The notes under the pieces were generated by a model that saw only the letters and a program-made list of their open reading frames with translations, was not told the origin of the DNA and searched no databases. Positions 823 through 8,389 of a DNA stretch of 8,389 nucleotides are shown one piece after another. The DNA comes from a virus. The first letter of the stretch is position 1. Every line of letters starts with the position of its first letter. Position numbers and translations under genes: made by a program. Where the stretch lies: the UHGV virus genome UHGV-1378212. One strand, given 5' to 3'.

Positions 823-1098
823 ATGTTATCTTTTCAGGTTTTCCTTTTTAAAAAAGCATTAGAGGAAGAATTAGATATAATCAAATGGCATCCAACAAAT
901 GAACAATTGGAGGAGATGTTCAATGAGATAAAAAAACTCAGTGGCAATGAAAGCATCACTGAAGTTGAAAATATCGTTCATCGAATTTACAAAAAACCGA
1001 TTACAAGAATGATTTGTAATGGATTGAATACATCGAAAGCAAGTTCGCTATTGGCAAAAATTCAATCCCAGTCAAATAACACTCAACAAAAAAGATAG
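823..1098 (+). CDS. Hypothetical protein (91 aa)
   Basis: ORF MLSFQVFLFKKALEEELDIIKWHPTNEQLEEMFNEIKK...; SD-like AGGAAAG 6 nt upstream of ATG; stop TAG 1096-1098 overlaps the next start (GTG 1098); C-terminal motif paralogous to previous ORF. Confidence 0.55.
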   Translation: MLSFQVFLFKKALEEELDIIKWHPTNEQLEEMFNEIKKLSGNESITEVENIVHRIYKKPITRMICNGLNTSKASSLLAKIQSQSNNTQQKR

Positions 1099-1802
1099 TG
1101 AAATCAGATATGGATGTTCACGGTATCATTGATAATCAAAAAAAAGAAATTGAGCGTTTATATGAAAAATATACTGAGTCATTAGAGTGTTACCTATCTG
1201 GTAAATGTGATTTTGATACCGTGAATTCATGTGGAGACAGTTTTTTCGGCTATTTAGAACACTGCGCTGCACATAACAGAACAGTAGATGAATTAAATAA
1301 TACTCAATGGAATCAATGGCTTGCAGAAACATGCATTGATGTTCTTCACCTTATCTTAGCTCATTACAAAAAATATAGAGAGGTAATGAATGATAATAGT
1401 ATTAAACCAAGCTCCACTGCTTTTGCTTCAATGCAAAGGATAGTAAAAGCCCATGACAAACGTTCTGCAAAAGAAATAAGGAATCTTTTCGTTAATGAAG
1501 ATATGCCAGTATATGGATTTGACAATAAAGGAAAAGAAAAATTGACAAAAGCACACGAGAGAATAGCGGCATTTAGCTTTGGCATTTTACTTGTTATTCT
1601 TTTTATAATAATCGCAATATTTATACCTAATCCAACGAACTTTCAATACACTTTCTTTCGAATAATTCTTTCAGCAGCAGTTGCTGGGGTAGTCTCATTT
1701 ATACCCGGGTTTATAGAAGTCAAAATATCAAACTGGGTAAGAGCAGGTGGAGCATTAGCTGTATTTGTGATTGTCTATTACGTGGCTCCCGCAGCATTAT
1801 GA
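1098..1802 (+). CDS. Hypothetical membrane protein: Cys-rich soluble N-terminal domain (~165 aa) plus three predicted C-terminal transmembrane helices; candidate effector/exclusion protein
   Basis: 234-aa ORF (GTG 1098, alternative ATG 1110); hydrophobic stretches AAFSFGILLVILFIIIAIFIP, FFRIILSAAVAGVVSFIPGFI, AGGALAVFVIVYYVAPAAL at the C-terminus; five Cys in the N-terminal domain; followed by an intrinsic terminator. Confidence 0.6.
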   Translation: MKSDMDVHGIIDNQKKEIERLYEKYTESLECYLSGKCDFDTVNSCGDSFFGYLEHCAAHNRTVDELNNTQWNQWLAETCIDVLHLILAHYKKYREVMNDNSIKPSSTAFASMQRIVKAHDKRSAKEIRNLFVNEDMPVYGFDNKGKEKLTKAHERIAAFSFGILLVILFIIIAIFIPNPTNFQYTFFRIILSAAVAGVVSFIPGFIEVKISNWVRAGGALAVFVIVYYVAPAAL

Positions 1803-4314: not shown

Positions 4315-5034
4315 ATAATAATTAAATCCTCTGTGAACAGAAAATTGACCGTGCGTGATAAATGGTGGCAAAAGCGAATAAGCACCATGCGGATAGTTAT
4401 CAGTAAAAACCTGTTTTGTATTGTAGGCGGAATATAATGATTTTCCGGTGTATATCCATTTATCAACAGTAATTGAATTAACGTTATCACCATATTTGAC
4501 AATGCCAAAGTGTACCTTTGGTAAAGAAAATCGCGCCCCTGAAACCAAATTCATAATGGAGCCAACAAAAGGAATGTTTAATTTATCTGAACGGCGACAA
4601 TAAACAACATGCTCAGCAAGCGCCAGACGAGCTTGCTTATCCATTATCGAAATATCCTGAATCAAAAATATAATATCCCAGCCTAATTTTCTGGCATGTA
4701 AAAACCAGTCAATAACAGGTTGTCTGTCTTTATCACCCCATGAGCGGGAATTAAACCAAGTACCACATTCATCAAGTACAAGGAGGCCATTACGGGATTC
4801 ATCGTAAGATGTATTCCCAATACCAATAGCAAGTAAATCATTTAATGAAGGCTTGTCAGGAATGCGAATAACGCGCGTTTTTTTCGCATAACGCCCAACC
4901 ATAGGCATATTATGCAATTTAAGATCAAGATTAGTGGCAACAGGACAACCCTTAGCAAGTCTTTCCTGTATTCTGGAAACACTAACAAGTGTCTTGCCTG
5001 AGCCTAATTTGCCTGTTACTACATGAACCGCCAT
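3940..5034 (-). CDS. I: Gene I assembly ATPase (pI, Zot-like), Walker A GKLGSGKT
   Basis: 364-aa ORF MAVHVVTGKLGSGKTLVSVSRIQERLAKGCPVATNLDLKL... very similar to recalled M13 pI (MAVYFVTGKLGSGKTLVSVGKIQDKIVAGCKIATNLDLRL...); start abuts gene VI stop (TAAATG). Confidence 0.95.
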   Translation of the reverse strand: MAVHVVTGKLGSGKTLVSVSRIQERLAKGCPVATNLDLKLHNMPMVGRYAKKTRVIRIPDKPSLNDLLAIGIGNTSYDESRNGLLVLDECGTWFNSRSWGDKDRQPVIDWFLHARKLGWDIIFLIQDISIMDKQARLALAEHVVYCRRSDKLNIPFVGSIMNLVSGARFSLPKVHFGIVKYGDNVNSITVDKWIYTGKSLYSAYNTKQVFTDNYPHGAYSLLPPFITHGQFSVHRGFNYYMRLTKIYFRKSNRLILMLSFLALGLALGFWLQSGKNVDEISAIKSAYAEQARAVTPDSSSDLPRLSINSFSQLGFDVSVTFVDAKGTKYQYFDLIKDGYSVDIKDACRVVIRKGRYLQTVICQE

Positions 5035-5376
5035 TTAAATCACCCTGTTTGCATAATCAAGAAATTTTTGTTTTAAATCGAAAACAAAAACACTGATACG
5101 AGTAACCATAATAACGTTAACACACGCCTGAAAATGGTCAGGCAATACAGACGCCATTAAATGGGAGAAATCAGCAGGTAAACCGTTATACATGACCTCA
5201 GCAAGGTACTGCATTAAAAGCGTAACAGTTGTTGTAATTAATGCGACCAATGCAAAGGCGATTAATCCTGTTCTGGTAGCAAGTCGAGCTAAAAAACTCG
5301 CCACATAGCCAATAAACAAAGGAACAAGACCAATAAGAAAACGCAACAATGCAGGAATACCTAATAATAAAGGCAT
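5035..5376 (-). CDS. VI: Gene VI minor coat protein (pVI)
   Basis: [32 protein letters not shown]...FVFDLKQKFLDYANRVI resembles recalled M13 pVI (MPVLLGIPLLLRFLGF...FIFDVKQKIVSYLDWDK); ATG at 5374-5376 overlaps gene III stop by 1 nt (track ORF starts one codon earlier at GTG 5379). Confidence 0.9.
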   Translation of the reverse strand: MPLLLGIPALLRFLIGLVPLFIGYVASFLARLATRTGLIAFALVALITTTVTLLMQYLAEVMYNGLPADFSHLMASVLPDHFQACVNVIMVTRISVFVFDLKQKFLDYANRVI

Positions 5377-6626
5377 CACTCACCCCCTTTGCGAAGCAAT
5401 GAAGTTAAAGAAGTAAAGACATACCAGAACGTAAGGCAATAAAAAACCCATGAAAGAACATCTTTAATAGTCAGTAATTTATCGCAACCAATATCAATCT
5501 GATAAACCTCTCCGGGAAAAATAATAAAATCAGAGCAGCCGTTACCATTGGGTAAATTAGGCAGCATAGCACCTTTATTTAAAAATGCTTCCCATAAAGC
5601 ACCGTGAGAATCCTTTTCAATTCCCAATTCAGAATCAGCCAAAGTAGAAGCGCCATCTAATTCAGAGTCGCCCTTTCCATAACGAGAATCACCACCTGAA
5701 GGGTCAGCAAAACGGCCAGCCCCCCGCGTAAGATTGTTAATGGAATCGTCAAGACGATTTATATTATTCCTAGTTTGTTCATCGGCATTTTTTTTATCAT
5801 CTGATGAAGTGTCTTTCTCCGTTAATTTATCATGAATATCGCTGGCTATTTTGGGTGAAGCACCTTCGATAGCAGACTGAATATCACCTTTAGAAAGACT
5901 GGAACCACTAAAGCCACCGCCAGAACTACCGCCACCGGACTCACCACCGCCAGAACTACCGCCACCGGACTCACCACCGCCAGACTCACCACCGCCAGAC
6001 TCACCACCACCATTTTGGGGGGTTGAGGGTTTATCAGAGGGGTCAGCTACAGTACCTGTAGGCTTCCATGTTGCAGCGCAAACAGTACCATCACCCTGAC
6101 AAACAATGACACCAGTAGCCTCATATTCACAGCCGTTATAGTAGATATAACGACCACCATCATATGAATCAACATTATTAAATACACCTTCTTCTGGCGG
6201 CTTCGCTTCACAAATTTCTTCTGGTGTCGGGTCAGTAGGTTTTTCATCAGGAACAGAACGCTGAATATCACCAACAATATAAGCCGTTAAAGACCAATAT
6301 TTATCCTTCTGCCCTGGTGAATCGCTGTAAGTACAATCACCAGTAAAAACAAGACGGAATTCAGAATCAGGCCAGATACCCTCATAAGTTGGTTTAACCT
6401 GAGTAAATACACTCTGAGCACTGGATTTAGCACCCTGACAAGCGGAGGCCTGCATAGCAGCATCAATATAGTAAACCGTTGACTTAGAGCCATCCTGATT
6501 GGTTATTTGCTTACTTTCAGCGTAGGCAGAGCTTTGATAAGTGGATTTAGTAATGCTTTCCCATGACTCAGCATGTGAAAAAGGAGAAATGAGGACAGCG
6601 GAAAGAATTAATATTTTCCTTTTCAT
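5376..6626 (-). CDS. III: Gene III adsorption / minor coat protein (pIII) with signal peptide, Gly-rich linkers and C-terminal anchor
   Basis: From internal ATG at 6624-6626: [19 protein letters not shown]|ESWES... signal peptide; Cys-rich N-domains; linker [33 protein letters not shown]; hydrophobic C-terminal anchor; position after gene VIII terminator; the 464-aa track ORF is an upstream extension overlapping gene VIII. Confidence 0.9.
5914..6011. repeat. Tandem direct repeats (2 x 30 nt, then 2 x 15 nt) encoding the Gly/Ser/Glu linker of pIII
   Basis: ccaccgccagaactaccgccaccggactca at 5914-5943 and 5944-5973; ccaccgccagactca at 5974-5988 and 5989-6003. Confidence 0.9.
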
Positions 6627-6635
6627 AGTAACCCG

Positions 6636-6663
6636 CTTTAATAAAGGGGCAACGAGTGCCCCT
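6636..6663 (-). terminator. Rho-independent terminator after gene VIII (before gene III)
   Basis: On minus strand GGGGCA-ctcgt-TGCCCC stem-loop (plus coords 6646-6662) followed by TTTATT; same location as the central terminator of Ff phages. Confidence 0.8.
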
Positions 6664-6672
6664 GAGTGAAAT

Positions 6673-6915
6673 TCAAACCGCTTTTGAAGAGAATTTTTTG
6701 AAAATACGAATGGCAAGCCCAGCGCCAACCACAGCCACAACAACAGGCCATACTTTACCAATGAGATCATTTGCCTGAGTCAACAAAGCATCCATTGCCT
6801 GACCTGCATAATCAGTACCACCTGTAGCGCCTTCAGCCGCAAAAGAACTTGCAGAAACAAAAAGCGCAGTTGAAGCCAGAGCAACTTTATATTTAACAGT
6901 AGACAGAATTTTCAT
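6673..6915 (-). CDS. VIII: Gene VIII major coat protein (pVIII) precursor
   Basis: [26 protein letters not shown]|[54 protein letters not shown]: signal peptide, acidic N-terminus, hydrophobic core, basic C-terminus KKFSSKAV typical of Ff/IKe coat proteins; SD GGAG 8 nt upstream. Confidence 0.95.
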
Positions 6916-7118: not shown

Positions 7119-7436
7119 TTAACCTTTGATCTCTGCGATGCCACCATCGGAAGAAACATTATAAGTTACACCTTCCCTACCCTCCATTGACCACGCACGG
7201 ACATAGACAGGAATTTGAACTAATTTCCCAATGAAAGCATTCGCCTGGTTCATTAGACCTGCGTTAACGAGAGTCTGAGAAACTCGAATAATAATTTGAT
7301 CCTGCTTTGTACCACCAAAACCATCAGGTATTTCAAGGCCAATACCAATTTCATTATAATAGCCCTGACCATTAACTTTATTACGTTGGCGGGCTCCCAA
7401 CATTTTACCCTTAACGAAAAGACCATAATTAGACAT
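7119..7436 (-). CDS. V: Gene V ssDNA-binding protein candidate (105 aa), divergent from Ff pV
   Basis: ORF in the canonical position between gene II/X and gene VII; weak resemblance to M13 pV (G-x-x-Y-x-NE region); assignment rests mainly on synteny. Confidence 0.6.
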   Translation of the reverse strand: MSNYGLFVKGKMLGARQRNKVNGQGYYNEIGIGLEIPDGFGGTKQDQIIIRVSQTLVNAGLMNQANAFIGKLVQIPVYVRAWSMEGREGVTYNVSSDGGIAEIKG

Positions 7437-7447
7437 ATTACTTTCCT

Positions 7448-7762
7448 TTAATGCCAGCTACTGGCGTGCGAAATACGGTTGTAATCGAAAATAAAACCTT
7501 TCTCATAAATCCATAAGGGGATTTCCACTGGCTTGGCTTCCAGCGTTCTTATTAGCGGAACAACGTTATTAGAGTCTGGTGAATCACAATAGAAATTAAT
7601 ATCGATACCGAACGAAAGCAATTCTCTTCTATGGCGATAAAAAGTGTTATGAGGTAACATTTCTTTCATGTTAGCCCCTTGTTTCCAAAGTAAATAAGTT
7701 GACTGTATTTTTCTTGGCAGTTTCGTTATTTTTTCATCACTTAAAATAGCATTCTGATTCAT
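7448..7762 (-). CDS. X: Gene X (pX), in-frame internal start within gene II
   Basis: Internal ATG at 7760-7762 begins MNQNAILSDEKITKLPRK..., comparable to M13 pX start MNIYDDSAVLDAIQSK and in the equivalent position in the C-terminal third of pII. Confidence 0.55.
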   Translation of the reverse strand: MNQNAILSDEKITKLPRKIQSTYLLWKQGANMKEMLPHNTFYRHRRELLSFGIDINFYCDSPDSNNVVPLIRTLEAKPVEIPLWIYEKGFIFDYNRISHASSWH

Positions 7763-8342
7763 TTCTATTCTCCCTACATATTCAGAGAATAATTGACGTG
7801 GTGTTTTCATATTCCAGTTAGCGCCAAGCGTTAAATTTAAATCAATAAGCTCAGTTGTTCTTAATGTTAATTCAATACGTAATTTATCTTTCGTCCAGTC
7901 CAGTAACCCGGCTCGTACAAAATCTTCGGCTATCTGGTGCCCTTTTTTACCCGAAACGTGTTCATCATATTTTGAATAAAATTTCAGACTCCATCGACGG
8001 GAGTTTTTACCTAAATAAACTGTACCGCCTTTCCCACATGCGCGACCATGGCGTGTTTTAGCTTTAAATTCGGCGGCATAAAGCCATGATCTGACATTTT
8101 CTAGCGTAGATAATGAATACATGTAATTAATGTCAACACGTGAAATTTTATACTGACCTGCTATAACAGCTTTATAAGACGCTAAATCATGAGGAATATT
8201 CAATAAGGATAAAATCCTGGCATAGACCGTCAACATGAGCCCTTGTATATCATCCGACCCAACAACAGAATGCCCCTGCAAAAACTTGGACGGATTACCA
8301 TCAATGTACAAATGTGTCGCTTTACCTTCGCCATTAGATCCT
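7448..8342 (-). CDS. II: Gene II replication initiation protein, C-terminal segment (continues at 56-213 via circular junction)
   Basis: 287-aa track ORF plus upstream in-frame codons to 8342; C-terminus ...NNVVPLIRTLEAKPVEIPLWIYEKGFIFDYNRIS matches recalled M13 pII C-terminus (NNVVPLVRFINVDFSSQRPDWY); the track start at 8311 is a TTG, not the real start. Confidence 0.9.
8288..8342. repeat. Terminal direct repeat, copy 2 (identical to 1-55)
   Basis: Exact 55-nt match to window start. Confidence 0.9.
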
Positions 8343-8389
8343 GTCTCTTATACACATCTCCGAGCCCACGAGACGTAGAGGAATCTCGT
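8341..8389. other. Sequencing-library adapter read-through (Tn5 mosaic end plus Nextera adapter with an index-like 8-mer), not biological sequence
   Basis: CTGTCTCTTATACACATCT (Tn5 mosaic end) followed by CCGAGCCCACGAGAC, 8 nt GTAGAGGA, then ATCTCGT (start of ATCTCGTATGCCGTCTTCTGCTTG); begins exactly where the terminal repeat stops matching. Confidence 0.9.

Follow-up and report, generated by a model that had tools for sequence, protein, structure and literature searches.

Among the systems described so far, the closest analogue to the locus presented here appears by organization to be RexA/RexB of phage lambda, and by habitat the cassettes with transmembrane (TM) effectors of the P2/P4 hotspots. 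In RexA/RexB, depolarization of the membrane aborts the superinfecting phage. The locus itself is part of a virus sequence of 8,389 nucleotides (UHGV virus genome UHGV-1378212), referred to in its entirety as the window in the following, which gene content and a matching published description identify as the filamentous prophage CUS-1 of Escherichia coli. It comprises the genes orf46, orf91 and TM230, of which TM230 (1110-1802 on the plus strand), the target of this analysis, constitutes the membrane component of an accessory (moron) operon in the variable slot of CUS-1 beside attP. We tentatively favor, at slightly less than even confidence, the explanation that this cassette, so far uncharacterized, serves phage exclusion or abortive infection by way of a membrane effector and is analogous rather than homologous to RexAB. 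Precedents have been published, as inoviruses carry exclusion genes as well as toxin-antitoxin (TA) modules (PMC6813254) and TM proteins serve as suicide effectors in systems of the P2/P4 hotspots (PMC9122126).

Like RexA/RexB, the cassette combines one or more presumably cytoplasmic, prophage-encoded components with a small polytopic inner-membrane protein, and it is located on the presumed lysogeny side of the genome, beside and on the same strand as the gene in the repressor position. The outcome proposed for it, a membrane depolarization that would abort a superinfecting phage, is also the same. However, there is no sequence relationship between the cassette proteins and RexA/RexB, and comparison with hhalign resulted in a probability of 0.2% for the membrane part of TM230 (alignment A2) against RexB and of 0.3% for its N-terminal domain (alignment A1) against RexA. 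Furthermore, RexB has four TM helices and lacks a large soluble domain, whereas TM230 combines its TM part with a soluble domain in one chain and is partnered in the cassette by one to three small paralogues of 46-100 amino acids.

The TM-effector systems of the P2/P4 hotspots, including a hydrolase paired with a TM protein and 2TM-1TM-TIR of phage AC1 (Rousset et al. 2022, PMC9122126), resemble the cassette in being small multi-gene cargo-hotspot cassettes in which the presumed suicide effector is a TM protein, and one homologue of the cassette resides in a P2-like phage. This homologue is found in the Z/fun slot rather than in the old/tin hotspot of that study, none of the PADLOC v2 models for these systems matches any cassette protein, and the present cassette contains no enzyme (TIR, hydrolase or reverse transcriptase). 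The P2-like phage in question (Peduovirus, OU784750.1) carries a version consisting of an 85- and a 233-amino-acid protein with 27% and 28% identity, respectively, between the tail-fibre genes and FI and divergent from FI, which is the slot and orientation of fun(Z) in P2. There, fun(Z) is annotated as a non-essential gene of lysogenic conversion by which T5 is blocked. Its product is one protein of 528 amino acids, however, the equivalence is positional only, and tblastn of the target against canonical P2 gave no match.

Target gene and membrane topology

The longest frame extends from a GTG at 1098 to the stop at 1802 and encodes 234 amino acids, which is the open reading frame (ORF) that an earlier note on this DNA, prepared from the letters alone, had singled out. 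Frame and stop are real, while translation most likely begins at the ATG at 1110, because PHROG 5814 (aligned with amino acids 5-234 of the 234-amino-acid ORF over profile positions 1-230 of 230, E = 5.7e-144), the RefSeq model WP_000382466.1 and the closest homologues all begin at this Met. The product thus most likely has 230 amino acids (1110-1802), to which the GTG at 1098 adds four codons.

The protein is composed of a helical N-domain and a module of three TM helices (3TM module). The N-domain (amino acids 1-140, 1110-1529 on the plus strand), which is predicted to be cytoplasmic, was modeled by AlphaFold2 as an all-helical bundle with a predicted local distance difference test (pLDDT) score >90 over amino acids 11-140, and residues W67, A72, E73, C75, L79, H85, P100, A106, Q109, R110, P133, Y135, G136 and F137 are invariant in alignment A1. 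A structural model followed by Foldseek was one of the checks suggested in the earlier note; the helical N-domain emerged with confidence, and the search of the target model against PDB and BFVD returned nothing at E<=1e-3. Profile searches of alignments A1, A2 and A5 against PDB sequences gave no match either, and no specific fold or sequence relative of the N-domain was found in PDB or BFVD.

The conserved 3TM module (amino acids 145-230, 1542-1799 on the plus strand) is characterized by the motifs FG(V/I)xF, PNPTxFQY, FRI, PGFIEV, RAGGALAVF and PA. Hydropathy places its hydrophobic segments at amino acids 153-173 (TM1, 1566-1628), 182-202 (TM2, 1653-1715) and 212-230 (TM3, 1743-1799), with Kyte-Doolittle peaks of 3.19, 1.99 and 1.97, and the 19-residue maximum of 3.19 was reached by 0.05% of 2000 shuffles. 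AlphaFold2 helices cover residues 147-171, 177-195 and 207-228 of the same region. Hydropathy, charge pattern and modeled helices establish the target as an integral membrane protein with three TM helices, in agreement with the three hydrophobic C-terminal segments of the earlier note. Lys and Arg residues are numerous before TM1, absent from the uncharged loop 1 and give loop 2 a charge of +2; by the positive-inside rule this distribution favors an N-in, C-out topology with a cytoplasmic N-domain.

The soluble part had additionally been described as Cys-rich with a C-x6-C-x7-C spacing. Five cysteines are indeed present (C27, C33, C41, C52 and C75), but they are spaced C-x5-C-x7-C and five in 152 residues is not notably rich. 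A Cys-based metal or redox sensor in the N-domain would be in keeping with the five cysteines of this allele and with the invariance of C75 along with E73 and H85. Comparison of 27 full-length homologues led us to reject such a sensor, which we regard as most improbable: C75 is conserved in 27/27, but C27 in 1/27, C33 in 8/27, C41 in 2/27 and C52 in 4/27, so that there is no conserved Cys cluster. A zinc-binding pattern of at least four conserved Cys/His ligands is absent from the target, the domain is a predicted all-helical bundle without a zinc-finger-like element, and no Pfam zinc-finger or metal-binding family matched.

Domain shuffling of the 3TM module

N-domain and 3TM module are two separable and independently mobile units. 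The last ~85 residues of the target share 50-60% identity with proteins that are otherwise unrelated to it and carry the module at either an N- or a C-terminal position. Together with its small partners, the N-domain is joined to unrelated TM segments at two loci (L041 and L040), and a Pectobacterium homologue (P0008) shares 66% identity with the target in the N-domain and 28% in the TM part. Across the family, mean pairwise identity amounts to 58% for the TM module and 43% for the N-domain.

When a profile of the 3TM module was searched against 1.84 billion proteins clustered at 50% identity, 2901 cluster representatives matched at E<=1e-3, and 1783 of them also at E<=1e-10. No Pfam model matches the module, including 141 further members. 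Among the proteins that carry it, a TIR domain (TIR_2) is N-terminal to the module in P0076, while FGE-sulfatase and TPR_10/12 domains are C-terminal to it in P0095 and P0183. Other partner domains are ankyrin and CHAT as well as the envelope-type domains SPOR, PEGA, Big_1, BACON, CarboxypepD_reg and DUF4019, which are fused at the C-terminal, predicted periplasmic side. Most of the partner regions in this set (proteins P0058-P0198) match no known domain.

Operon and small partner proteins

TM230 is the last gene of a tightly coupled three-gene operon. It is preceded on the plus strand by orf46 (681-821), which encodes a mini-protein (WP_001335097.1, PHROG 6875, E = 4.8e-67), and by orf91 (823-1098), which encodes a small partner protein (WP_000948310.1, PHROG 6502, E = 1.3e-63). 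The orf46 stop lies 1 nucleotide before the orf91 ATG (821/823) and the orf91 stop 11 nucleotides before the target ATG (1098/1110). The cassette is AT-rich, with a GC content of 33.6% compared with 41.2% in the rest of the phage. Both small proteins end in the common motif G-L-(D/N)-T-S-K-A-x2-L-L: orf91 carries W-x-P-T-x2-Q in addition to a C-terminal G-L-N-T-S-K-A-x2-L-L, and orf46 retains only G-L-D-T-S-K-A-x2-L-L, although PHROG 6875 models a longer form of 98 amino acids with a start at 525.

The association with small partners is obligatory among the loci analyzed, as a profile of the small proteins detected one to three small (~85 amino acids) paralogues directly upstream and on the same strand at 26/26 loci with a full-length homologue. 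They span several phyla, with Gamma- and Betaproteobacteria and Acidobacteriota among them, and comprise loci of Proteus, Aeromonas, Microbulbifer, Cedecea, many Pseudomonas, Paraburkholderia and Methylobacter as well as Acidobacteriaceae and actinomycete metagenome-assembled genomes, Sulfurovum and Tepidisphaeraceae. The idea of a stand-alone protein is not supported; instead, the target is always encoded within an operon of two to four genes together with small partners. The earlier note was right about the gene and its membrane protein, misplaced its emphasis on the cysteines and was incomplete in missing the operon.

The family motif of the small paralogues is G-[LVI]-D-x-S-x4-L-L. Outside the enterobacterial clade they form two subfamilies, A (FGTxPxEPTxxQ...HCPSxGxYxYxGxDNSDLNTLLALA) and B (WNPTxxQL...VCPxTxF..EGxDNSDLxTLLALA), usually in the order A, B, TM gene, while the enterobacterial clade possesses a mini-protein of 46-57 amino acids with the shared motif only. 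The existence of three A-B fusion proteins (P0251, P0252 and the 175-amino-acid protein of locus L038) argues that A and B work together. The small-protein family consists of at least 172 clusters, all unannotated or misnamed, and has no relative in Pfam or PDB. At locus L038 (Pseudomonas inefficax, 4609-5389 and 7339-7863) the fused A-B protein is located directly before the TM gene, and a second array of three small-protein paralogues is present ~2 kb upstream of the main cassette. Some NCBI records name the orf91 homologues P0243, P0247 and P0248 'S-(hydroxymethyl)glutathione dehydrogenase', which is evidently a propagated annotation error, since the 91-amino-acid protein lacks such a domain.

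The translational coupling of a small upstream gene to a larger membrane-protein gene would also suit an addiction (TA-like) module, in which the small proteins would act as antitoxins to the 3TM protein as membrane toxin, with the main role of stabilizing the unstable episomal or tandem prophage, plasmids and islands instead of stopping competing phages. The cassette does occur on plasmids and mobile elements, truncated TM genes are found in databases (P0010, cluster members), TA pairs are frequent in inoviruses (PMC6813254), and phages of the Ypf-phi/CUS-1 type have been described as unstable episomes (PMC4266046). However, arrays of two to three paralogous 'antitoxins', A-B fusions and a conserved regulatory domain of 140 residues on the 'toxin' are atypical of TA pairs, and the same TM module is also encountered in single genes, with other domains and without small partners. 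TA and abortive infection are furthermore not mutually exclusive. We consider the addiction module doubtful as an explanation; if the cassette were nothing else, it would be an ordinary finding.

Distribution and genomic context

CUS-1 is the E. coli K1 relative of the Yersinia pestis phage Ypf-phi, and its attL-adjacent end harbors two functionally uncharacterized ORFs, named "orf1 and orf1a", in place of the different ORFs that Ypf-phi possesses there (PMC4266046). The target is situated in this variable end as the last gene before the dif-like attP. A second CUS-1 variant (L015, IMGVR_UViG_3300045988_181437) with core proteins that are 98-100% identical to those of CUS-1 contains a divergent allele in the same slot (7143-8789). 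Its cargo consists of a 140-amino-acid multi-TM ORF, a small protein of 98 amino acids and a 262-amino-acid homologue of the target (37% identity), in which TM1 is preceded by an additional hydrophobic segment; an insertion sequence element and hipA come next. Another inovirus (L014), whose pI and pIV are 54% and 50% identical, encodes a 59% homologue with three small genes. The cassette family is represented on at least three inovirus backbones.

Each of the two CUS-1 alleles was detected on ~950-1000 Enterobacteriaceae contigs, always as "hypothetical". Within 5426 complete E. coli genomes the distribution was rare and patchy, with the exact allele in 22 and the other two alleles in 1 and 2. 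Beyond the inoviruses and the P2-like phage, a Microbulbifer homologue adjoins a prophage integrase and others are located on plasmids. A composite transposon around the Proteus cassette was considered and rejected, as the two flanking 375-amino-acid ORFs are unrelated. A role of the target in virion morphogenesis was ruled out because the cassette is also present outside inoviruses.

The occurrence of an inner-membrane protein on several inovirus backbones could point to an exclusion of competing filamentous phages whose entry via pilus or TolQRA would be disturbed at the inner membrane, and interference with the pilus-mediated entry of competitors, with Ff/IKe named for a test of resistance, had been raised in the earlier note. 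The same cassette, however, is found in tailed phages, namely the P2-like myovirus, as well as on plasmids, at an integrase-adjacent prophage end and in chromosomal islands of many phyla, including those for which Ff-type entry is irrelevant, which argues for a more general function. With the target in addition resembling neither pIII nor any other known determinant of exclusion, we regard a specific entry block as quite improbable.

We also considered that the target might serve lysogenic conversion or host fitness without any connection to phages, for instance as a membrane protein of the envelope or of stress signaling that contributes to the fitness effect of CUS-1 and Ypf-phi in animals. 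A modest in vivo advantage has been reported for both phages, which have unexplained ORFs at both ends (PMC4266046), the E. coli isolates with the allele are mainly human and extra-intestinal, and the extreme conservation of the 3TM module and its fusions to envelope-type domains would fit such a role. On the other hand, the hit obtained in CUS-1 by signature-tagged mutagenesis, puvA, is the pIII-like attachment gene outside the cassette and not the target, and Ypf-phi has other ORFs in the slot (PMC4266046). The presence of the cassette in environmental bacteria of many phyla and in phage cargo hotspots is likewise a poor fit to a virulence role, and a host-fitness factor appears unlikely.

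Genes adjacent to homologues of the cassette include nSTAND3, Gabija GajA, gop-beta-cII, KAP NTPase, HEPN/Toprim and OLD-like genes, and its context comprises cargo slots or defense islands.

Proposed function

In the phage-exclusion or abortive-infection module that we tentatively favor, sensing or regulation would be the task of the small proteins and the N-domain, and the 3TM module would act as the membrane effector. The target would be located in the inner membrane, its helical N-domain facing the cytoplasm, where small cytoplasmic partners could dock on this domain via the shared G-L-D-x-S-x4-L-L helix and either hold the target inactive or pass on a signal of phage infection. Upon such a trigger the 3TM module would oligomerize, the membrane would be compromised and the proton-motive force lost, and this damage would abort or exclude the competing phage. 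We infer the partner contact, the trigger, the membrane damage and the anti-phage phenotype from the coupled operon, the partners at all 26 loci, mobility between cargo slots, defense-gene neighbors, a patchy distribution and an effector-like modularity that includes the TIR fusion and N-domains with other TM regions, together with the published precedents. The suggestion of the earlier note that a soluble domain with a TM bundle might act as an anti-phage or exclusion effector is in line with the genomic context and the TIR fusion, while no known defense family matches.

Several observations weigh against this function. Scans of the six accessory ORFs against Pfam, NCBIfam and PADLOC resulted in sub-threshold matches only. 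In PADLOC-DB v2.0.0 (5027 models, including the TM effectors of CBASS, Pycsar and Thoeris, Kiwa, Zorya, the Rousset and Vassallo systems and HEC/PDC candidates) these were confined to Csx27 for the target (E = 0.0057, 15 bits) and Cas8b for orf77 (E = 0.023), with none for orf91 and orf46. The best Pfam/NCBIfam scores below cut-off were obtained for ENOD93 (16.4 bits, cut-off 25) and EscR (17.7 bits, cut-off 179); homology to a housekeeping family, by which the idea of the earlier note could have been refuted, was thus not seen above threshold in these scans. None of the cassette proteins reached the cut-off for membership in membrane or toxin families (SLATT, holins, Hok/TisB-type, DUFs), and the operon, which contains only orf46, orf91 and the target and no Pfam domain on any of them, does not conform to the cyclic-nucleotide-activated TM effectors CBASS Cap14/15 or PycTM, for which a cyclase or TIR signal generator and an effector with a nucleotide-binding domain would be expected. 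A literature search retrieved no published study of any member of the cassette family.

The neighborhoods also have to be viewed with caution, as neighbor ORFs were called crudely and several neighborhoods other than those with defense genes were housekeeping or uninformative. The three with Gabija and gop-beta-cII genes are orthologous Pseudomonas loci and therefore count as one observation. Conservation of the 3TM module (55-60% identity across phyla) is far above what is usual for simple pore-formers and could instead reflect a specific interaction with a conserved membrane machine. Confidence of AlphaFold2 in the TM part was moderate (pLDDT 47-71), and its model of orf91 was poor (four helices, pLDDT 57), which would be compatible with a subunit that folds on its partner but does not prove it. 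Finally, the cassette is located downstream of and on the same strand as a 60-amino-acid gene in the repressor position, with a promoter-like site at 322-349, and a hairpin at 583-611 in between may separate this gene from the cassette, so that co-transcription of both is putative.

It is possible, and we advance this with less assurance, that the cassette represents the founding example of an undescribed, phylogenetically broad two-part anti-phage system whose alleles are exchanged in the cargo hotspots of inoviruses, P2-like phages and plasmids and would arm the respective hosts against phage competitors. The first unit, a sensor or regulator, would be composed of one to three tandem small paralogues with the G-[LVI]-D-x-S-x4-L-L docking helix and of the helical domain of ~140 amino acids, and the second would be a new and very conserved 3TM effector with ~2,900 clusters and no Pfam model, which bacteria have coupled to TIR, FGE-sulfatase, TPR and many unknown domains. 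The individual genes have been catalogued before, as target, orf91 and orf46 are full-length members of PHROG 5814, 6502 and 6875, respectively; since these families carry no function, membership indicates only that the proteins had been listed as phage hypothetical proteins. The system-level picture of tandem small paralogues, a helical domain, a shuffled 3TM module and exchange between inoviruses, P2-like phages and plasmids was absent from the libraries and literature searched.

If the cassette is a defense or exclusion system, the anti-phage repertoire would gain a new family of several components, the long-unexplained "orf1/orf1a" end of CUS-1 would receive a function, and CUS-1/Ypf-phi, a small chronic phage of extra-intestinal pathogenic E. 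coli related to the phage of the plague bacillus, would be seen to shield its host from other phages. The 3TM module, with its ~2,900 clusters at 50% identity, would then be a marker for further conflict systems, and small paralogues in tandem with one short motif in common would represent an unusual regulatory or sensing design that merits structural study.

Other features of the CUS-1 genome

The cargo slot ends at the attP region (1803-1905, no strand assigned), which adjoins hipA and constitutes the end of the prophage. Two inverted dif-like sites, GGTTCGCACAATGACGTTATGCTAAAG on the plus strand and GGTGCGCATAATGTACGACTCGTTATGTTGAA on the minus strand, are positioned on either side of a GC-rich stem (1833-1867), and as single-stranded DNA the region adopts a long, forked hairpin structure (-29 kcal/mol, z = -6.2). 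It is an attP of the CTX-phi type, suited to integration by XerCD at dif beside hipA. The sites were located by eye and alignment, and an exact dif search with <=3 mismatches gave no match. The GC-rich stem together with TTTTC could also serve as a terminator of the cassette transcript. Prophages 100% identical to this phage adjoin hipBA in one to three tandem copies in extra-intestinal E. coli, including F11, MS 200-1 and 85.0412.

The 60-amino-acid ORF (383-565 on the plus strand, PHROG 2503) is the first gene on the cassette strand, divergent from pII, and is 100% identical in the CUS-1 variant with the other cassette allele. We infer a repressor-like function from its position, which corresponds to the rstR-like place on the Ypf-phi/CUS-1 map (PMC4266046). 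The divergent intergenic region between pII and this ORF contains three to four direct repeats of the type TGAGTTCA(N)(T/G)AG at 257-339, which are likely operators of the phage repressor and are overlapped by the promoter-like site. The hairpin at 583-611 is a 13-bp inverted repeat (AACGTGCAGTATT / AACACTGCACGTT) directly after the stop of the 60-amino-acid ORF and may function as a terminator or attenuator between this gene and the cassette.

Beyond attP, two accessory ORFs of unknown function are encoded on the minus strand, one of 77 amino acids (1938-2171, PHROG 5435) and one of 102 amino acids (2289-2597, PHROG 4115), which are probably homologues of YPO2280a/YPO2281. The 77-amino-acid protein, and not the target, is the Cys-motif protein of the window; it has two CxxC pairs resembling a zinc ribbon and a weak match to zf-FPG_IleRS (E = 0.004).

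The window was assembled as a circle, with bases 1-54 repeating 8289-8342 as an end overlap of 54 nucleotides, and the true genome length is ~8288 nucleotides. The last 48 nucleotides (8342-8389) are a Nextera adapter read-through (CTGTCTCTTATACACATCTCCGAGCCCACGAGAC plus index), which caused spurious matches to unrelated phage records. In a megablast of the whole window against a phage collection only a short stretch of pIV (IKe and PEar) and the adapter were matched. The minus strand encodes the standard inovirus set of pII, pV, pVIII, a pIII-like gene, pVI, pI/Zot and the pIV secretin. The pIII-like gene (5376-6770 on the minus strand), a puvA-type attachment protein gene, contains a run of glycine-rich linker repeats with (S/E)SGGG in the region 5846-6013, similar to pIII of Ff.

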